A DNA stretch of 64,000 nt from a virus. Under the pieces are notes generated by a model that worked only from the letters and a program-made list of their open reading frames with translations, ran no database searches and was not told where the DNA came from. The stretch's first letter is position 1. The number at the start of each line of letters is the position of its first letter. The translations under genes were made by a program, and so were the position numbers. Shown here piece by piece: positions 56,482 to 64,000 of the stretch. The stretch lies in IMG/VR virus record IMGVR_UViG_3300019776_000961, positions 129,221 to 193,220 of that record; one strand, given 5' to 3'.

Positions 56482-56823
56482 TTAGTACGCACCAATGAGT
56501 GCGTTGGAGGTATACTCTTCTGGTATATTAGGGGTGGCAATGTACCAGGCACTAGTATCAATTCTCTTTGCCAGAGATGGATAGGTTTCAATCAAATCTT
56601 CACCGATAACAACCTTAACTGGTAACCACCTAGTAACAGGTGAACCGGTGGCTTTGCCGGCTAGAGCGTAGCGCACGTCTACCTTCTTATATGGGTTAAC
56701 AAGATAGGCTTCCATATCTTCAGGAAATACAATGAACTTATAACGTTCAGGTGAAACGGGTACAAGACGTGCGGAATTCGTACGAATATATGCCTCGTTT
56801 AATAGATGACTATCATTATTCAT
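56482..56823 (-). CDS. Hypothetical late protein, leader family
   Basis: MNNDSHLLNEAY; TATAAATA 9 nt upstream. Confidence 0.65.
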   Translation of the reverse strand: MNNDSHLLNEAYIRTNSARLVPVSPERYKFIVFPEDMEAYLVNPYKKVDVRYALAGKATGSPVTRWLPVKVVIGEDLIETYPSLAKRIDTSAWYIATPNIPEEYTSNALIGAY

Positions 56824-56859
56824 ATATATTAGTATTTATAGGTTTAATAAAGTAGAAAT

Positions 56860-57087
56860 TTACTTCTGCGGTAAATTAATAGTAATGATAACGGTGTTAG
56901 TATCTCTCTTTGTAGATGTAGATATAACACTACTTGTAGTAGCACTATCACTGATAATACCACCCCCTGTCTTGTTAAGGAGGGAAGCTACACTTCCGGC
57001 GATATCAAAGATTGTATAAGCAATACAAAACAGAGCTATACAGAGAAACGGGTTGAGTCTATTGAGGCTAAAATCAAACTTCATCAT
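56860..57087 (-). CDS. Small membrane protein (late)
   Basis: One hydrophobic segment; TATAAATA 5 nt upstream. Confidence 0.55.
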   Translation of the reverse strand: MMKFDFSLNRLNPFLCIALFCIAYTIFDIAGSVASLLNKTGGGIISDSATTSSVISTSTKRDTNTVIITINLPQK

Positions 57088-57275
57088 ACGGGTATTTATA
57101 CCGAGGAGCCTATATAGAAAATCCTCGCAGACGCGCTAAAAAAAATTTTGCTAAAAAAAGTTGGCATGGGGCCTATAGAATTCCAACCCCCTTTCCCTAT
57201 ATGGTTAAATTCCCGTGCTTGGGGATATATCCCCGTGGGGGTTTTAGAACCCCCTATACGGTTCTAGAAACCCAC

Positions 57276-57458
57276 CTAGCGCTCTAGAAGGTGTATGCTA
57301 TAGCGGAGAGATGGCTTACTAGTAGTACCATCTACTATACGATGATAGATCTTATTGGAGAGGTATCCAATAAGGTACCAGCATAGTAGACCTATCATAC
57401 TGGCTATGATCCATGATACGATCTTCACCTTACTATACCTATAGCCTTCTTCAATCAT
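57276..57458 (-). CDS. Small membrane protein
   Basis: ATGA-coupled to the upstream gene; one transmembrane segment. Confidence 0.45.
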   Translation of the reverse strand: MIEEGYRYSKVKIVSWIIASMIGLLCWYLIGYLSNKIYHRIVDGTTSKPSLRYSIHLLER

Positions 57459-57694
57459 ACAGCAATGGCTAGCTCTTTGAGCTCATCATCCACAGTGGCG
57501 TACGCCCTATTAAGAGCGTCTTGAATACCGCTACTATAACCCTTAACCTCCCAATCAATAATGGCCTGGAGAGTACCCAGAGCATAGCTGTGGGCGTACT
57601 GGCGATTGTTCTTCTTATCCTGGAGCTCAACAATCTTGTTAACCAGCTCCTGGACGGTGATATCTTTCTCTGTGTGCTTTATTTTATTTTTCAT
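57455..57694 (-). CDS. Leaderless early gene (MKNKIKH...)
   Basis: Start reassigned to the ATG 6 nt after TACAAT. Confidence 0.75.
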   Translation of the reverse strand: MKNKIKHTEKDITVQELVNKIVELQDKKNNRQYAHSYALGTLQAIIDWEVKGYSSGIQDALNRAYATVDDELKELAIAV

Positions 57695-57731
57695 ACGATG
57701 ATTGTATATGGAATCTGTTTGAACCTCCAGC

Positions 57732-57920
57732 TTAAACGGCCTGGGCGTACGACTCATGCGTCTTCCAAAGGTCTCGCATCTCACGTCTTAGCTTATTGTA
57801 TTCAGCAGAGCGTTCGGTGCTGGATGTAAACTTAGCCATCCTCTCATAGTACTCCTCAAGAGTCTTGGCCGCCTTGGTTACGTTGTCGTAGTATTCGTCT
57901 ACTGTGTTCTTATTTTTCAT
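57732..57920 (-). CDS. Leaderless early gene (MKNKNTVDE...)
   Basis: TTGACC-17-TATACT-6-ATG. Confidence 0.75.
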   Translation of the reverse strand: MKNKNTVDEYYDNVTKAAKTLEEYYERMAKFTSSTERSAEYNKLRREMRDLWKTHESYAQAV

Positions 57921-57962
57921 ACGATCAGTATAAGGTCTAAAGGTGGAACGGTCAAGCCTCTT

Positions 57963-58166
57963 CTACCAACGCACCCTCCGCTTGCTATAGTATTCCTCGA
58001 CCGTGCACCCGGTTTCGTATTCCCCGAGCATCTCGTTCTCCGATTGCTGCTCACGAAGACTGTCCAGCTCGTTATTGATTCGGCTGAGCTCTCCAAGCCC
58101 CCTTGCCAAGTTGGCCTGAGCTTCAAGTTGCATGATTCGGTATTGGATAGTGTTCTTATTTTCCAT
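57963..58166 (-). CDS. Leaderless early gene (MENKNTIQ...)
   Basis: TTGACC-17-TATACT-6-ATG. Confidence 0.75.
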   Translation of the reverse strand: MENKNTIQYRIMQLEAQANLARGLGELSRINNELDSLREQQSENEMLGEYETGCTVEEYYSKRRVRW

Positions 58167-58197
58167 ACTATCAGTATAATGGAATCTGGCCGAACGG

Positions 58198-58467
58198 TCA
58201 AGCCCCTTCTACGACAAATCCATGCATGTCCCGGACAGTGTTCCGCTCCTCCAGGGCCTCTTCATCCTCTCTTAACTCCTCCTCGAAGACATTAACCAGA
58301 TACTCCCATTGAGCGTTAGTGTACTTAAAAGGATCCAAGGCCGCGCGGACATAGTTGATGTTACCAGTCCTAATGGACTTCCTCCAGACGCTATTCAGGT
58401 ACTCGTCGTTGTCAATCCAGAGCTCAAGCTCGCGATCGGAATGAATGGTAAGGTCTAGGTTTCTCAT
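58198..58467 (-). CDS. Hypothetical early protein
   Basis: RELELWIDNDEYL; its TGA stop lies inside the next -35 box. Confidence 0.7.
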   Translation of the reverse strand: MRNLDLTIHSDRELELWIDNDEYLNSVWRKSIRTGNINYVRAALDPFKYTNAQWEYLVNVFEEELREDEEALEERNTVRDMHGFVVEGA

Positions 58468-58468
58468 A

Positions 58469-58576
58469 TTAGCGAGGCATGAGGGCGAAGGCTACGATGT
58501 TAATAACAACCACGGCTGAGGTAGCAGCAAGGAGCCAGAGGTTGATCGGGTTATTGACGTTGTTCTTATTTTTCAT
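58469..58576 (-). CDS. Leaderless 35-aa membrane peptide (MKNKNNV...)
   Basis: TGGAAG-17-TATACT-6-ATG; hydrophobic C-terminal half. Confidence 0.65.
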   Translation of the reverse strand: MKNKNNVNNPINLWLLAATSAVVVINIVAFALMPR

Positions 58577-58613
58577 ACTATCAGTATAAGGGAATCTGAA
58601 AGGAACTTCCAGC

Positions 58614-58805
58614 CTAGAATCCGTATGATCGAAGAACCAGATAGGCATGTCCTTCATCCAGGACATCGTTGTACTTATCAATGGCTACAGACATATGATT
58701 AACGCCACAGAAGTCATCCCTATCAGGATCGTATACAGTGACGTCATCATTGAGACGGTCTACCGGGATCTCCATGAGAGACTTGATGAGTTGTTTGTAG
58801 GTCAT
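58614..58805 (-). CDS. Hypothetical early protein (MTYKQL...)
   Basis: Start reassigned to the ATG just after the upstream TAA. Confidence 0.65.
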   Translation of the reverse strand: MTYKQLIKSLMEIPVDRLNDDVTVYDPDRDDFCGVNHMSVAIDKYNDVLDEGHAYLVLRSYGF

Positions 58806-58806
58806 A

Positions 58807-59028
58807 TTAGTGGCGGCAGAGTTCCAATCCGTGTCTGATGATCTCGTCAAATCCTCCGTAGCTATTGTAGAGGGAGACGATCTGGTGGTTGACGTCTGAG
58901 GAGCCAATCTCTTCAACACCCCACTCCTTCAGCTCAAGCTTGGCCGTATTCCGGACCAATCCCGCGATCCCTGCATCCAGGGCCTTATACTCTGTCATTA
59001 CTTCTTCGAACGTTTTTCTATTTTTCAT
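58807..59028 (-). CDS. Leaderless early gene (MKNRKTF...)
   Basis: TTGAGT-17-CATAAT-6-ATG. Confidence 0.75.
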   Translation of the reverse strand: MKNRKTFEEVMTEYKALDAGIAGLVRNTAKLELKEWGVEEIGSSDVNHQIVSLYNSYGGFDEIIRHGLELCRH

Positions 59029-59065
59029 ACTGTAATTATGGCTTCTGATTGTGGAACACTCAAGC

Positions 59066-59326
59066 TTATTCCCTGGCCCATCCTTCGGCCAAGTCTTGGA
59101 CGTAGCAGCTAAACTCACCGTTCATACAAGCGTTTTCAACGGCAACGGCAGCCTCTTCATATTCGGTGTCCTCTGTGAAGATAATGTCAACAGCCTCCTT
59201 GTAATCAGGAGTATTCATGAGCTCCTTAAGGTCGTTAAGTGCTTCGTAGATCTTACCAGATAGCTTCTCGTACTGGCTGGCGATATCGATGATGGCTTCG
59301 GGTGTCAGTTTGTTCTTATTTTTCAT
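59066..59326 (-). CDS. Leaderless early gene, tandem paralog B (MKNKNKLTPEAII...)
   Basis: TTGAAG-17-TATACT-6-ATG; similar to 59364-59633. Confidence 0.8.
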   Translation of the reverse strand: MKNKNKLTPEAIIDIASQYEKLSGKIYEALNDLKELMNTPDYKEAVDIIFTEDTEYEEAAVAVENACMNGEFSCYVQDLAEGWARE

Positions 59327-59363
59327 ACGATCAGTATATTGTACTTTGAAAGGAACTTCAAGC

Positions 59364-59633
59364 CTATTCCTTCTCCCAGAGTCTGGTAATCTCTGAGAGA
59401 TCCTGGATGAAGCAGCTAAATTCGCCACTTAGGTTTGCATTCTCTACAGCGACGGCAGCCTCTTCATATGCCTCATCTTCGGTGTAAACAATGTTAGCAG
59501 CCTCCTTATACTGAGGGGTTCCCATCAGGTCTCTCAGGTCGTTAAGGGCGTCGTAAACCTTGCCTACGATTCCTTCGTAAGCGCTAGCGATTTCGATGAT
59601 GGCTTCGGGTGTCAGGGTGTTCTTATTTTTCAT
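59364..59633 (-). CDS. Leaderless early gene, tandem paralog A (MKNKNTLTPEAII...)
   Basis: TGGAGG-17-TATACT-6-ATG. Confidence 0.8.
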   Translation of the reverse strand: MKNKNTLTPEAIIEIASAYEGIVGKVYDALNDLRDLMGTPQYKEAANIVYTEDEAYEEAAVAVENANLSGEFSCFIQDLSEITRLWEKE

Positions 59634-59652
59634 ACTATCAGTATAAAGGATT

Positions 59653-59811
59653 CTAGATGGAACCTCCAGCCTCAAGGGTCGAAATTACCTCCATCCAGGC
59701 CTCACGCCATGACTTGAACTCGTCTCCGGCCATGGCGAATTGATTGACCATTTCGCGGATGTTAGCGATGAGCTTCTGATTCTTTTTGCTTACCTTGTTC
59801 TTATTTTTCAT
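59653..59811 (-). CDS. Leaderless early gene (MKNKNKVSKK...)
   Basis: TTGACT-17-CATAAT-6-ATG. Confidence 0.7.
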   Translation of the reverse strand: MKNKNKVSKKNQKLIANIREMVNQFAMAGDEFKSWREAWMEVISTLEAGGSI

Positions 59812-59859
59812 ACCATCATTATGATGGCCGAACAAGGAATAGTCAAGCCCGAAAAATGC

Positions 59860-59899
59860 GAAAGCGCACCGGTGCCAGCTTCCTGCCCGGTGCGCTTTC
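59860..59899 (-). terminator. Stem-loop upstream of a cassette promoter
   Basis: 13-bp perfect inverted repeat GAAAGCGCACCGG/CCGGTGCGCTTTC with 14-nt loop. Confidence 0.65.
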
Positions 59900-59954
59900 T
59901 TATTGTTGTGTTCTCTTTCGCTGGCTTTACAGGACCCTCTTTGGAGGGTGATTC

Positions 59955-60182
59955 TTAATCGATCCTCGTGGCGCGGAAGCCAGTGGGGATCTTCTTGAAG
60001 GAGTATTCAAATCCCTCCTTCTTGAGCTTCTGATACATCTTGCACCCGTTCGGCTTAGCCTTCCATCCCCAGAGGATGAAGGAGCGTCCAATGGCCGTAG
60101 AGCGCCAGGGATACTTGGTTGTGTTGAAGGGCCGTCCAGGCTTACGCGAGGAGATGGTCTTGGATTCGATCTTGTTAACCAT
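59955..60182 (-). CDS. Small basic, putative DNA-binding protein
   Basis: RKPGRP...KYPW...GRSF...GFRATR. Confidence 0.6.
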   Translation of the reverse strand: MVNKIESKTISSRKPGRPFNTTKYPWRSTAIGRSFILWGWKAKPNGCKMYQKLKKEGFEYSFKKIPTGFRATRID

Positions 60183-60187
60183 TTGGA

Positions 60188-60556
60188 TTAGGCTCCCTTC
60201 TTGGTCTTGCCGTTATAACGGAGGATCGTAGCACCATCGAGATCCTGGATCGGAGACTCAAACGTTGATCCGAGAATACCTTTGATCTCAGCAACGGTCT
60301 TTCCAGAGCGGAGAAGCTTAGCGACGTCGCGGGAGACGTAGTGCTTGAGGATGTCCTCGGTGGAGCAATTACGTGCCTCAGCCTTCTTCGCAAGGTAAGC
60401 GGCGTTGGTATAGCGTCCGACTCCGGTGACCTGACAGACAAGCTTCGGCGTGATGGTACGAGCGGTCTTCTCGACCTTGGGCTGCGCACTTTTGATGGTC
60501 TTGCGCTTAACCTGGCTCTTAGGAGCCACTGTTTTGGTTTCGACTGTGGTAGTCAT
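60188..60556 (-). CDS. Basic hypothetical early protein (MTTTVETK...)
   Basis: Own promoter TTGCCG-17-CATACT, 13 nt before ATG. Confidence 0.65.
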   Translation of the reverse strand: MTTTVETKTVAPKSQVKRKTIKSAQPKVEKTARTITPKLVCQVTGVGRYTNAAYLAKKAEARNCSTEDILKHYVSRDVAKLLRSGKTVAEIKGILGSTFESPIQDLDGATILRYNGKTKKGA

Positions 60557-60601
60557 ATTCTTGATCTTTAGTATGGCTGAATGTATTCGGACCGGCAAGA
60601 T

Positions 60602-60781
60602 TTATTTTGTGGTACTTGGACCAACGAAAACGTAGGCCGCATTAAGAATCAAACCGATGCAAATGACATAGAAGTAATAGAACGGTACAGGGTTATGATC
60701 GAGCATAGTTAATCCTACGTGTGCGCAAACGACGACGTTGATGAGATTAACAATAAGGGAGGCGATATCAAGTTTAGACAT
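60602..60781 (-). CDS. Small two-transmembrane protein (MSKLDI...)
   Basis: Two hydrophobic segments. Confidence 0.55.
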   Translation of the reverse strand: MSKLDIASLIVNLINVVVCAHVGLTMLDHNPVPFYYFYVICIGLILNAAYVFVGPSTTK

Positions 60782-60797
60782 GTTGTGTTGTTTGGGG

Positions 60798-60959
60798 TTA
60801 TGACCAGAGCTTATACTCATAGTCGGTGATCCTGTTCGTATCCTGGAGGCTCTGTACCCAGCTTGAGTGCGTGGTGCGGAGCATGGCCTCCAGGACGGGT
60901 GATGGCTTACGATTACGTCTCAGAAGATCTTCGATTGTATTAAGAATAAAGCTAATCAT
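60798..60959 (-). CDS. Hypothetical protein (MISFILN...)
   Basis: Start reassigned to the ATG just after the upstream TAA. Confidence 0.5.
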   Translation of the reverse strand: MISFILNTIEDLLRRNRKPSPVLEAMLRTTHSSWVQSLQDTNRITDYEYKLWS

Positions 60960-60960
60960 T

Positions 60961-61191
60961 TTAGTCAATAGCGAGCTTATGATCATCGAGAGTTTGGTGA
61001 ATGTAATCACCCTCGCTCTCATTGCAATAATGTTCCCAGAGGTAGAGGTAAGGGTTAGTAAACTTAGAGCAAACAAATCCAACGTTTATAATATGACTCC
61101 GAACCTTAGGCGGAAGTGAGAGGATTGAATCGATGAAAGCATCGTAGTAGTTTGCGTCGACTTGTTCTTCGTTGGTGTTTTTATTTTTCAT
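60961..61191 (-). CDS. Leaderless early gene (MKNKNTNEE...)
   Basis: TTGACC-17-CATAAT-6-ATG. Confidence 0.75.
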   Translation of the reverse strand: MKNKNTNEEQVDANYYDAFIDSILSLPPKVRSHIINVGFVCSKFTNPYLYLWEHYCNESEGDYIHQTLDDHKLAID

Positions 61192-61233
61192 ACTGTAATT
61201 ATGGCTTCTATTTGTGGAACGGTCAAGAGGAAA

Positions 61234-61306
61234 AAGCGACCTAGGTGATTAATGTGGCATAAGTGCCCGTCCGGAGATCTCCTCCGACACTATTCCTAGG
61301 TCGCTT
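61234..61306 (-). terminator. Long structured stem-loop/terminator upstream of a cassette promoter
   Basis: 12-bp perfect inverted repeat AAGCGACCTAGG/CCTAGGTCGCTT enclosing two small hairpins; U-run follows on the minus strand. Confidence 0.65.
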
Positions 61307-61314
61307 GTTAAATG

Positions 61315-61533
61315 TTAGTAAATGTCCTCGGCTTCTGCAAGCTTTGATTTGAAATATTCTGAAAAGAAGCCCTCTTCGTAGAGGTAGTCACCAAGCTTCT
61401 CCATGTCCTTCTCAGAGAATAGCTTCTCATCAGCAGCTAGGATCATCAGATCATTCTCTGGAGTCACCCAAGCACACCATGGGCGTCCAAAGGCTTCAAT
61501 GTACATCATTCTATCTAGGTCGGCGTGTGTCAT
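61315..61533 (-). CDS. Hypothetical early protein
   Basis: 72-aa ORF in a co-directional run. Confidence 0.6.
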   Translation of the reverse strand: MTHADLDRMMYIEAFGRPWCAWVTPENDLMILAADEKLFSEKDMEKLGDYLYEEGFFSEYFKSKLAEAEDIY

Positions 61534-61534
61534 A

Positions 61535-61912
61535 TTATTTGTTCAACCTCCATCCAGCCTCTTTGTAGTCGACGATAGGGAACCCATTCTCGTCATGGTG
61601 ATCGCAATCAACAAGATAGATGTATTCGATGTCTCCATGGTCTTCGATGCAAGGTCCGATTCCACAGAAGCTCAGAGGATTAGGATTCTCATCATCACAC
61701 TGACTGATAGCGTACCAGACGATGTACTTAGCTGCCAAGTACTCCGCGTCGTTGAAGCGTGTATCTTTAGCCTGTTCCTTGACGTCCTGGAAGAACTTCT
61801 GAAGCTGGTTCAAACGACCGCCTTCACCATCAGGATAGCCATCCCAGTGGACGTAGATGTTTGCACGAACTGTTCCTCCATCGGAGAATTTGACTTGTGA
61901 GCGTGTTGCCAT
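61535..61912 (-). CDS. Conserved phage hypothetical protein (MATRS...YVHWDGYP type)
   Basis: MATRSQV...IYVHWDGYP...EYIY. Confidence 0.75.
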   Translation of the reverse strand: MATRSQVKFSDGGTVRANIYVHWDGYPDGEGGRLNQLQKFFQDVKEQAKDTRFNDAEYLAAKYIVWYAISQCDDENPNPLSFCGIGPCIEDHGDIEYIYLVDCDHHDENGFPIVDYKEAGWRLNK

Positions 61913-61954
61913 ATTGTTTATTGATTGTAATTGGTTTGGGTTGGAACTTAAAGC

Positions 61955-62176
61955 TTAAAACAGCCCGGCTGGATCGGCCTCTGTGTCAATGAACTCCTGA
62001 ATCTCTTCAAAGAGCGCAGGTACCTCTACAGCGTATCCTTCTACAGTCTCCAACCGGCTATCGATGATCTTTCCGTCTTCGTTGAAATAATCGACGTAGC
62101 GGTAGGTTTGATCATCCTTCTGGACGGTGTAGGACTTGGTGACAATCTTGTCGGTATCGATGGCTAGAATCTTCAT
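61955..62176 (-). CDS. Hypothetical early protein
   Basis: ATGA-coupled to the upstream peptide gene. Confidence 0.6.
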   Translation of the reverse strand: MKILAIDTDKIVTKSYTVQKDDQTYRYVDYFNEDGKIIDSRLETVEGYAVEVPALFEEIQEFIDTEADPAGLF

Positions 62177-62304
62177 GCGTATTGGAGGTTGTATTTTGCT
62201 TTGCGGTTGTAAGCTTTCTTGTTACGAAAGGCCTTCTGTTTGGGAGCGAAAGGTTGTCGCACCTTCAGCTCTTTGATTTCTATGATCCACTTCTCATTTT
62301 TCAT
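62173..62304 (-). CDS. Leaderless 43-aa basic peptide (below the ORF-track cutoff)
   Basis: MKNEKWIIEIKELKVRQPFAPKQKAFRNKKAYNRKAKYNLQYA after TTGAGT-17-CATAAT-6. Confidence 0.7.
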   Translation of the reverse strand: MKNEKWIIEIKELKVRQPFAPKQKAFRNKKAYNRKAKYNLQYA

Positions 62305-62322
62305 ACATTCATTATGAATGCA

Positions 62323-62532
62323 TCAGGGGGAACACTCAAGCCGAAAATCGTCCAAACAACCTTCAATCATCTGGAGGGCTTCCTTCTCAGTGATTCCTTC
62401 CCACCACACATCATCTATACAAATGATATCTGGCAGGTCGTTTAAGCCGAGACCAAACTCTTTATGGCACTTGAGGTTTAGCGCTCGACGGAACTCCGAC
62501 CTCGATACTGTAGGTTGATTAAGCAGTGACAT
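62323..62532 (-). CDS. Hypothetical early protein
   Basis: FGLGLNDLPD...WW; the stop falls inside the next promoter spacer. Confidence 0.6.
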   Translation of the reverse strand: MSLLNQPTVSRSEFRRALNLKCHKEFGLGLNDLPDIICIDDVWWEGITEKEALQMIEGCLDDFRLECSP

Positions 62533-62971
62533 ACTTCAAAGTCTTGCAAGTTGCGTTACAATTCTTGACGTAAGGGCAGTCATCACACCGCTTGAAATCC
62601 AAGTAGATATCAGGCCGGATGCACACTCCATTCTCAGTCATTTCTGATACGAGTTCAGGAGAGTCCTTCAGAGCAACCTCCCGGGATACGTATGGCTTGA
62701 GCTTGGGTACCTCATATGACTCGATCTTAACGTCCTTCTTCTTAGCCCTCTTAACGGTTACTTTCTTCACCTTCTTAGGCTTGGAAGCGCTCACACATGA
62801 ACGGCATTTGAAGGTCTCCAAAAGGGTTTCAATCCCACCGTACTTCGCAATCTTTCCTTCGAGGTTAGTCCCGAAGCAGGTGATGTGGGTGGTGCATTCC
62901 GTACAAACAATCTTCTTGTTCAAGAGGTGTCCGGTCTTTTTGTAGCTGTTCAGCTGTTCTTTATTTTTCAT
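62519..62971 (-). CDS. Leaderless early gene, Cys-rich (Zn-binding) protein
   Basis: TTGCAA-17-CATAAT-6-ATG; CTEC, CRSC, CDDCPY..NC. Confidence 0.75.
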   Translation of the reverse strand: MKNKEQLNSYKKTGHLLNKKIVCTECTTHITCFGTNLEGKIAKYGGIETLLETFKCRSCVSASKPKKVKKVTVKRAKKKDVKIESYEVPKLKPYVSREVALKDSPELVSEMTENGVCIRPDIYLDFKRCDDCPYVKNCNATCKTLKYVTA

Positions 62972-63099
62972 ACGTTCATTATGGCTTCTGGATTCGGAAC
63001 TTGCAAGCTATTCGGAAGGCAATCTCCCCTCCGATTCGCCGTGCTGGTGGTATTGATTGGCAATTCAAACTGGGTCTCCCAAGGGCTCCCAGGGAGATT

Positions 63100-63315
63100 C
63101 TATGAATGATCCGTTTGTTTCAGCAGCATCTCGTCAGCTGCACATGCATTAGATGCTTCTTTCAATTCAGAATAGTTCTCCATTACAAAGAGATATTCTT
63201 CCTTTGTGAGTCCGGTTGCCGTTCGAGCCTGCGAGCTGAACATATTGTAATGTCCTCCCTTTCGGACTCGTTCGTAGGACTTAAACTGATTGATTTGTTT
63301 CTTTGTGAAGTCCAT
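63100..63315 (-). CDS. Conserved phage hypothetical protein
   Basis: YERVRKGGHYNMFS..A...GLTKEEY...NYSEL. Confidence 0.7.
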   Translation of the reverse strand: MDFTKKQINQFKSYERVRKGGHYNMFSSQARTATGLTKEEYLFVMENYSELKEASNACAADEMLLKQTDHS

Positions 63316-63317
63316 GA

Positions 63318-63596
63318 TTATGCGATAGCTGGGGTATTCTTCTTGTTAAATGCTTCAGCTCGGTCCTGGATTCCAAGCAGTTCACCGACAATATTCTCAA
63401 GCTTAGTAATCTTCTGTCCGATAAAAGGATCATCGGAACGAAGCACCTTATGGAGACACTTAACTACATCCTCAATCTCTTCTAACGTATAGAAAATGTG
63501 CATGGATTTGTCATCCTCACACATAGAGTTAATATCAGCAGCGCGAACGCGGTTTTGGAGTTGGGTTGGCTTGTTCATCCATTCTTTATTTTTCAT
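63318..63596 (-). CDS. Leaderless early gene (MKNKEWM...)
   Basis: TTGAAG-17-TATACT-6-ATG. Confidence 0.75.
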   Translation of the reverse strand: MKNKEWMNKPTQLQNRVRAADINSMCEDDKSMHIFYTLEEIEDVVKCLHKVLRSDDPFIGQKITKLENIVGELLGIQDRAEAFNKKNTPAIA

Positions 63597-63627
63597 ACAA
63601 TCAGTATATTGGAATTCGAAAGGAACT

Positions 63628-63798
63628 TCAAGCGGAAAGTTCGACAATGATATATTCTTCTCCATCCCAGGAGCGCAAATCACCTTCCTGCTCTTCCATT
63701 CCTTCGGTGATTTCTTCAATGGTCTCATCCTCATCCAGGACAATGTAGTCAGCCTGGCCATTGTAGCGATTGATCTGTAGATATTTACTATTTTTCAT
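63628..63798 (-). CDS. Leaderless early gene (MKNSKYL...)
   Basis: TTGAAG-17-TATACT-6-ATG; its TGA stop lies inside the next -35 box. Confidence 0.75.
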   Translation of the reverse strand: MKNSKYLQINRYNGQADYIVLDEDETIEEITEGMEEQEGDLRSWDGEEYIIVELSA

Positions 63799-63829
63799 AC
63801 GTTCAGTATATTGGAATTTGAAAGGAACT

Positions 63830-64000
63830 TCAAGCAAGAACCGGCTCAACAGGTCCAGCCGGTACATTTAGAAAACGCTCCTCGACATAATAACGATCGT
63901 ACCTGCATAGATCATATGTATTAGAATCCCAATCCTTTTGAGCCTCTTTCATATAGATGTTGATAGCCACAGCGGCGTCTTCTTTGGATGAATAGACACC
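63830..64000 (-). CDS. C-terminal part of a hypothetical protein entering from outside the window
   Basis: Own translation ...GVYSSKEDAAVAIN...EPVLA-stop; the TGA is inside the -35 box of the next cassette. Confidence 0.6.
   Translation of the reverse strand, partial: GVYSSKEDAAVAINIYMKEAQKDWDSNTYDLCRYDRYYVEERFLNVPAGPVEPVLA

Follow-up and report, generated by a model that had tools for sequence, protein, structure and literature searches.

The DNA analysed here, referred to as the window (64,000 nucleotides), forms the final part of one viral contig of 193,220 bp (IMG/VR record IMGVR_UViG_3300019776_000961) and carries 13 copies of a repeated unit in which a sigma70-like promoter sequence is followed at a fixed distance by a start codon. 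The contig originates from an uncultured T4-like lake phage. The window harbors genes for a T4-type portal, major head, baseplate hub and tail fibre, and 22 tRNA genes, including one for Lys-UUU, are located on the contig, which was classed as linear and 88% complete by CheckV. A Megablast comparison of the sequence with deposited phages yielded no match. The most probable interpretation of the repeated unit, to which we assign a probability of about 0.7, is that the copies are early promoters giving leaderless mRNAs, arranged as stop-promoter-start linkers similar to the early-promoter/stem-loop cassettes (PeSLs) of phages such as RB49 and T4.

According to this interpretation, the 13 repeats would be strong promoters for the primary, sigma70-type RNA polymerase of the host and would be located in an early hyperplastic block. 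Each unit would form a compact linker consisting of the stop codon of the preceding gene (at -40 or within the -35 hexamer), a promoter and a start codon. The transcript would begin at the AUG and would be translated without a leader or a ribosome-binding site. The A-rich beginning of the coding sequence, here called the head, would provide an unstructured 5' end and might also aid promoter escape, and the shared N-terminus MKN(K)(N) would be a by-product of this nucleotide-level head. Like PeSL cassettes, the repeated units would double as joints where genes can enter, leave, be duplicated or be exchanged. That the units act as promoters, that transcription starts at the ATG and that the A-rich head has the function given above is inferred from the sequence, and the early timing of expression of the array also by analogy with T4.

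Geometry and number of the repeated units

In the window, 13 copies of the core word GTATGRAAAAT are present where 0.24 would be expected, and none of 100 shuffles of the window reached 13 copies. The whole contig contains the same 13 copies and no more, all of them on the minus strand with ATG positions between 57694 and 63798. When the copies are aligned at the ATG, the -35 hexamer is located at positions -35 to -30 and is followed by a 17-nt spacer, a -10 box at -12 to -7 and six nucleotides ending in GT. The subsequent ATG opens an open reading frame (ORF) in all 13 cassettes. The -10 box is TATACT in seven cassettes, CATAAT in five and TACAAT in one. An earlier reading of the same DNA, made from the letters and a list of ORFs (the original prediction), had given 13 ATG positions, all of which are exact, and its description of both promoter hexamers, of the spacer length of 17 nt and of the six nucleotides ending in GT agrees with the alignment.

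An independent consensus scan called 10 of the 13 units sigma70-like with 17-nt spacing; the three cassettes with TGG in the -35 hexamer fell below its cut-off. With a matrix covering positions -38 to -1, the 13 sites score 26-47 bits. The next best sites in the 193 kb are two degenerate promoters within the array (12.7 and 6.0 bits), and all remaining sites score less than 4 bits. Over the contig, a motif scan of the kind that had been proposed as a check finds 13 strong sites, all of which belong to the array. The array, its cassettes (coordinates from -38 to +15 relative to the ATG; -35 hexamer and -10 box separated by a slash) and the two degenerate promoters are as follows.

57276-64000, minus strand, early-type gene array of about 26 small ORFs (35-150 aa), cut off by the contig end
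63784-63836, minus strand, cassette 1, ATG 63798, TTGAAG/TATACT, TGA of the upstream gene within the -35
63582-63634, minus strand, cassette 2, ATG 63596, TTGAAG/TATACT, TGA of the upstream gene within the -35
62957-63009, minus strand, cassette 3, ATG 62971, TTGCAA/CATAAT, placed to drive a 150-aa Cys-rich protein
62290-62342, minus strand, cassette 4, ATG 62304, TTGAGT/CATAAT
61177-61229, minus strand, cassette 5, ATG 61191, TTGACC/CATAAT
59797-59849, minus strand, cassette 6, ATG 59811, TTGACT/CATAAT
59619-59671, minus strand, cassette 7, ATG 59633, TGGAGG/TATACT, first of two tandem paralogues
59312-59364, minus strand, cassette 8, ATG 59326, TTGAAG/TATACT, second tandem paralogue
59014-59066, minus strand, cassette 9, ATG 59028, TTGAGT/CATAAT
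58562-58614, minus strand, cassette 10, ATG 58576, TGGAAG/TATACT, placed to drive a 35-aa membrane peptide
58152-58204, minus strand, cassette 11, ATG 58166 (ATGGAAAAT), TTGACC/TATACT
57906-57958, minus strand, cassette 12, ATG 57920, TTGACC/TATACT
57680-57732, minus strand, cassette 13, ATG 57694, TGGAGG/TACAAT, gene of a family (13 members) found in 12 of 18 arrays
61912-61955, minus strand, degenerate promoter TTTAAG/TACAAT, ATG 11 nt after the -10, without A-rich head
60556-60601, minus strand, degenerate promoter TTGCCG/CATACT, ATG 13 nt after the -10, without A-rich head

The spacing of the degenerate promoters would imply leaders of approximately 5 nt (61912-61955) and 7 nt (60556-60601). 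The array has a GC content of 44-47%, compared to 32-38% across most of the window. Because the contig stops inside the array, in an ORF that is open at its 5' side, and because the contig ends do not overlap, the number of 13 cassettes is a lower bound.

The unit in related phages

An exact search of IMG/VR with the -10-to-head part of the cassette identified 75 further units at 17 loci on approximately 13 other viral contigs, each of them followed by an ORF. A logo was derived from 83 unique units of the window contig and 13 related contigs. Its upstream part consists of a TA(A/G) stop at -40 to -38, GC at -37/-36, TTGA at -35 to -32 and T(T/C)C at -28 to -26, and its downstream part of CC at -16/-15, the -10 box, A at -5, GT at -2/-1 and an A-rich head that continues through +15. 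Most positions of the spacer vary freely. The claim that the repeat reaches about 15 nt into the coding sequence is borne out by the conserved head in this logo.

The distance between promoter and start codon was also determined with a matrix restricted to positions -38 to -7, for which the sequence after the -10 plays no part in detection. This matrix found 149 unique promoters in the phage group. An ORF-opening ATG is located exactly 6 nt after the -10 in 117 of them (79%) and at 7 nt in five. As 31 of the 117 promoters with 6-nt spacing carry neither the canonical ATGAAAAAT nor ATGGAAAAT, the spacing between promoter and ATG does not depend on the head.

The 3' part of the cassette gave 13 single matches among 185,579 prokaryote genomes, all in unrelated metagenome-assembled genomes and none with the promoter part (matrix score <8). 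With such scores, these matches were regarded as chance and as providing no clue to the host.

Start codon and translation initiation

No in-frame ATG, GTG or TTG occurs upstream of the cassette ATG before a stop codon in 75 of 117 unique cassette genes; in the window, this applies to 5 of 13. The longer starts in the ORF listing are TTG or GTG triplets that lie within the -35 or in the preceding gene. The stop codon of the preceding gene is located at -40 in 33 of 110 cases and is identical with the TGA of the -35 in another 18 of 110; there is no slack between array genes. From the reading frames, the cassette ATG can be taken as the start codon. This is in agreement with the original prediction, which had placed translation initiation at the cassette ATG and not at the longer upstream starts: the ATG is the sole possible start in the 75 genes. 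In the orthologue of cassette 63596 at L008 (position 8926, minus strand), the locus most closely related to the window, an ATC is present in place of the ATG of an otherwise intact cassette, and the next in-frame ATG follows 15 nt downstream. This variant offers a naturally occurring case for asking if a short leader is tolerated by the unit.

Shine-Dalgarno (SD)-like words are located before the first ATG in 8% of 240 ORFs across the genome, which equals the control of internal ATGs, so that no SD signal is present. In the 13 window cassettes, which all use ATG as start codon, no SD-like word was found. G is depleted upstream of ORF starts. A T4-type late box, TAAATA, is located close to the start of 37 ORFs, at a distance of 5 nt in 24 and of 6 nt in 13 of them, and late messages look leaderless as well. 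The placement of two unrelated promoter classes, early and late, directly against the start codon would be hard to explain unless messages starting at or close to the AUG work well in the host.

Transcription by the sigma70 holoenzyme begins approximately 7 nt downstream of the -10, preferably at a purine (+1) that follows a pyrimidine (-1). In the cassettes, the A of the ATG is located 7 nt after the -10 and is preceded by an invariant T at -1. The spacing suggests that cassette mRNAs probably start at the AUG and are leaderless. In Deinococcus-Thermus a -10 adjoining an ORF leads to leaderless expression, and this arrangement also works in E. coli when a -35 is supplied 17 bp upstream (PMC12340547). 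According to Brock (2008), as cited in PMC5312081, the 5'-terminal AUG is the site through which leaderless mRNA is bound by ribosomes.

The A-rich head as a nucleotide signal

Constraint on the first 15 coding bases acts at the level of the nucleotides and not of the peptide. In the 117 promoter-defined genes, codon 2 is AAA in 101 cases and AAG in 3, and codon 3 is AAT in 90 cases and AAC in at most 1. In the bodies of the same genes AAA accounts for 33% and AAT for 48%, and the gene bodies of the window array contain 12 AAA compared to 57 AAG codons. Residues 4 and 5 vary (K/R/E/S and N/K/E/I, respectively) with the A-richness retained, and in variants with an additional A the base string is retained but the peptide is shifted to MKNKE. 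The original prediction, according to which all proteins begin with MKNKN, is exact for 6 of the 13, whereas the others begin with MENKN, MKNKE (two proteins), MKNKI, MKNRK, MKNEK and MKNSK. The first 12 nt are predicted to be unpaired with a probability of 0.89, compared to 0.52 in internal controls (p = 3e-17).

Ten orthologous cassettes were compared between the window and L008. The head (+1 to +15) shows 94% identity and the consensus positions of the promoter 92.5%, whereas the variable promoter positions are only 64% identical. In the corresponding gene bodies, identity amounts to 81% at codon positions 1 and 2 and to 58% at third positions. Non-orthologous cassettes within the window share just 33% identity at variable positions, and for this reason the conservation is attributed to selection on particular bases. 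Gene conversion or homogenization of whole units is ruled out by the same value. Two subfamilies of cassettes stand out: in the first, the TATACT box is combined with a TTCC-rich spacer, and the second has a CATAAT box. Their existence suggests that units have been copied.

Putative terminators and transcription units

Two hairpins with terminator-like features were identified in the array.

61232-61306, minus strand, long branched hairpin with a U-run, probable terminator directly upstream of cassette 5 (-35 kcal/mol, z -6.1)
59852-59899, minus strand, GC-rich hairpin with a U-run, intrinsic-terminator-like, directly upstream of cassette 6 (101-nt stretch folding at -39.7 kcal/mol, z -4.6)

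These two hairpins are predicted to split the array into at least three blocks. The hairpin at 61232-61306 is conserved in L008 and is bigger than a simple terminator requires. The cassette cores from -45 to +3 fold no better than shuffles in 12 of 13 cases (z -0.6 to +2.0), and the core of cassette 59811 has a z of -2.5. A stem-loop within the cassettes was considered and rejected as not significant; the complementarity between the -10 and GTATG is a by-product of two TAT-rich words.

Because most cassettes lack an upstream terminator, their ATGs should also be read within polycistronic RNA. SD-free internal initiation must then also work in the host, since most ATGs lie in RNA expected from read-through. 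It is further supported by relatives that use CAA-rich leaders of 35-50 nt before a Cys-rich gene. This arrangement of a cassette-type promoter, a CAA-rich leader and the conserved Cys-rich gene was observed at L005 (positions 4478 and 6538), L012 (1451), L015 (7637) and L017 (57); the gene is related to that of the 150-aa protein at 62971 in the window, and the arrangement represents an SD-free alternative with a leader. The proposal of leaderless early mRNAs made in the original prediction is therefore retained in part. The geometry is held in 117 of 149 promoters, the gene starts at the ATG, no SD signal exists in the genome and the head acts at the nucleotide level, but the leaderless route is not exclusive.

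Gene gain, loss and exchange at the units

The 127 cassette genes of all loci belong to 64 families, 38 of which are singletons, and the order of families varies between contigs. One gene family, represented in the window by the gene of cassette 13, is mostly the last of the array. Between the terminator and the 61191 gene, L008 harbors an extra promoter and a gene of 47 aa; the 5' side of the window promoter at 61191 resembles the first of the two L008 promoters and its 3' side the second. Unrelated genes are located between cassettes 57920 and 57694 in the window and in L008, and the homology stops 10 nt past the ATG at 57920. The tandem paralogues at 59633 and 59326 correspond to a single gene in L008.

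A strain with about 95% identity (X5), represented by a 7-kb contig from a different study, also contains one copy of this tandem pair, with a net loss of 307 nt that corresponds to exactly one unit. The promoter of cassette 58576 contains in this strain approximately 477 additional bases, located between 58615 and 58595, and a replacement starts 15 nt past the ATG of cassette 58166. Between the window and L008, homology blocks end in cassettes in 7 of 14 cases, and 13 of 25 gene starts carry a cassette. Cassettes are used as joints for gene exchange, but a preference for them over ordinary gene boundaries was not evident. At 60786 and 61227, related strains from the source study (X2-X4) join a cassette-like piece, with short sides of just 46-52 nt; the joint at 60786 is located just upstream of a gene for a small membrane protein.

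Weighing of the interpretations

Several observations weigh against early promoters that produce leaderless mRNAs and act as exchange joints. A terminator precedes just 2 of the 13 cassettes, and with most ATGs inside putative read-through RNA, leaderless initiation cannot be the only route. The start site is placed by the spacing rule of sigma70, and the polymerase and the ribosomes of the host may have other preferences. The conservation of GC at -37/-36, T(T/C)C at -28 to -26 and CC at -16/-15 is not accounted for by the E. coli consensus. Furthermore, four differences from L008 are not bounded by cassettes (a replacement at 62176-61535 and differences at 60958, 60182 and 58467), and with one close relative available, an excess of breakpoints at cassettes over ordinary gene boundaries was not shown.

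The lack of terminators before most cassettes would fit if the units were mainly translation-initiation regions for internal genes of read-through RNA in a host without SD pairing, where the AT-rich -10-like box and the head recruit ribosomes, for example through S1, and the promoter is weak or incidental. Cassette-less array genes and the genome as a whole likewise start without SD, relatives place SD-free CAA-rich leaders before one conserved gene, and the 5' coding bases are unstructured. However, translation would have no use for a -35 held at 17 nt, with 92.5% identity between orthologues at consensus positions and a spacer that has drifted to 64%, and the fixed 6-nt distance between -10 and ATG is what the start-site rule predicts. 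We therefore regard this explanation as unlikely. The conserved positions outside the consensus would instead be explained by middle-type or phage-specific promoters, at which a modified host polymerase or a phage factor reads additional bases. These non-classical positions are conserved over 83 units and include two TTCC-like boxes about one helical turn apart. A complete -35/-10 pair with 17-nt spacing is nevertheless sufficient for recognition of the sigma70 type. No match to the AsiA or MotA families was found in the contig, which is a weak argument in a record that is 88% complete and with controls that gave no match. A dedicated factor of this kind is considered unlikely as well, slightly more so than ribosome recruitment.

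The shared N-terminus raises the question of whether the peptide itself is selected, as a tag for degradation, targeting or packaging of early proteins. All 13 proteins start with MKN or MEN, six of them with MKNKN. Against such a tag, synonymous sites are fixed contrary to the local codon preference (AAA 101 to AAG 3; AAT 90 to AAC at most 1), the A-richness persists although residues 4 and 5 differ between proteins, and the extra-A variants shift the peptide. Selection on the peptide is thus highly improbable. The gain, loss and swapping of genes between cassettes and the apparent spread of two cassette subfamilies within the array would also be expected if the repeats served in the first place for the recombination or mobility of a selfish element and resembled promoters only secondarily. 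Among the array proteins, neither a recombinase nor an endonuclease was found, the conservation falls on polymerase contact positions and the start codon, and several rearrangements are not bounded by cassettes, so that this origin is equally remote. Early promoters giving leaderless mRNAs, organized as PeSL-like linkers, remain the interpretation that we prefer.

Relation to known systems

The closest known system, which the original prediction had not named, is that of the PeSLs. In PeSLs, which were described in the pairs RB49/phi1, T4/PST and KVP40/nt-1, a sigma70-like early promoter and a stem-loop terminator together form the repeated sequence (Arbiol 2010, PMC2839356; Comeau 2014, PMC4122927). 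PeSLs possess an AT-rich upstream region and an SD before the start codon, are located in hyperplastic regions, and mediate indels and swaps (PMC2839356, PMC4122927). Exchange between neighbouring PeSLs is also described as producing mini-circles. The lake-phage units resemble them as repeated sigma70-like promoters ahead of small ORFans in a hyperplastic T4-like region. They also span the distance from the upstream stop codon to the downstream start codon, and some indels and gene replacements between relatives are located at the repeats, alongside others that are not bounded by them. In contrast to PeSLs with their stem-loop, AT-rich upstream region and SD, the lake-phage units have neither SD nor, as predicted, a leader; their ATG follows 7 nt after the -10, and the repeat runs 15 nt into the coding sequence. 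A stem-loop accompanies only 2 of the 13 units and is located upstream of the -35 in both. As promoter, location, stop-to-start span and an association with gene turnover are shared but the SD, the leader and most stem-loops are lacking, the lake-phage units were filed as a variant of the PeSL kind and not as members.

Leaderless genes with a -10 adjoining the ORF are known from Deinococcus-Thermus (PMC12340547) and Actinobacteria (PMC3160421). The lake-phage units share with them a -10 a few bases before the start, the lack of an SD and an mRNA expected to begin at the AUG; a -35 at 17 bp strengthens such promoters. The cellular genes are, however, dispersed, mostly without a -35 and without a shared head, whereas the phage has a complete, portable and repeated promoter with a fixed A-rich head. 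In the host-takeover module of the Bacillus phage SPO1, small early genes whose functions are unknown are likewise packed densely into a terminal cluster with many strong host-type promoters. SPO1 early genes have leaders with strong ribosome-binding sites and, unlike the genes of the lake-phage array, are not known to share a coding head. The start-associated sequences of Cluster K mycobacteriophages are reportedly short conserved words at translation starts, like the array repeat, but are said not to be full promoters and to have no -35 or -10. In the literature searched, which was not complete, no account of leaderless cassettes of the PeSL type was found for T4-like phages.

Phages of the T4 type are a textbook model of gene expression, in which early genes are described with leaders and ribosome-binding sites. 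The present data suggest a widespread freshwater branch that sets both early and late promoters against start codons and uses no SD. In its fullest form, this proposal comprises a self-contained linker of about 55 nt with its start codon at +1, in which a head dedicated to leaderless initiation was selected jointly with the promoter, in a lineage whose early and late genes are leaderless or SD-free throughout and whose host makes no use of SD pairing; we hold it tentatively, with chances somewhat below even. If true, the unit would be a natural minimal promoter-plus-start element of about 55 nt, and any ORF brought behind it by recombination would immediately be expressed. With an A-rich head that is conserved as a nucleotide sequence, the unit would also offer a convenient system for studying the efficiency of leaderless messages, and the PeSL concept would be extended to shuffling joints without stem-loop or ribosome-binding site.

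Other features of the array

None of the ten largest array proteins belongs to a Pfam family. For one of them a PHROG match was obtained, to a group whose function is unknown. For the 150-aa Cys-rich protein (62971), a protein atlas gave weak zinc-ribbon leads only. The best conserved array protein is the 35-aa membrane peptide (58469-58576, minus strand), which shows 97% identity with its counterpart in L008 and is present twice in L015. A search of Rfam over 56500-64000 yielded nothing meaningful, the lone match being to an archaeal snoRNA family (17.5 bits, E 0.69).

At L001 (position 4800), L003 (730, plus strand) and L015 (3792, minus strand), a promoter of the cassette type is located on the strand opposite to the array and is followed by a conserved stretch of approximately 100 nt without a start codon. 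No copy of this arrangement was found in the window, perhaps owing to the contig end. The conserved stretch could be a small RNA.

Codon usage also differs between the array and the remainder of the contig. In the array gene bodies, AAA accounts for 17% of the Lys codons and AAT for 37% of the Asn codons, whereas 147 long ORFs outside the array show values of 52% and 72%, respectively. Possibly, the early genes are adapted to the tRNA pool of the host ahead of the synthesis of phage tRNAs.

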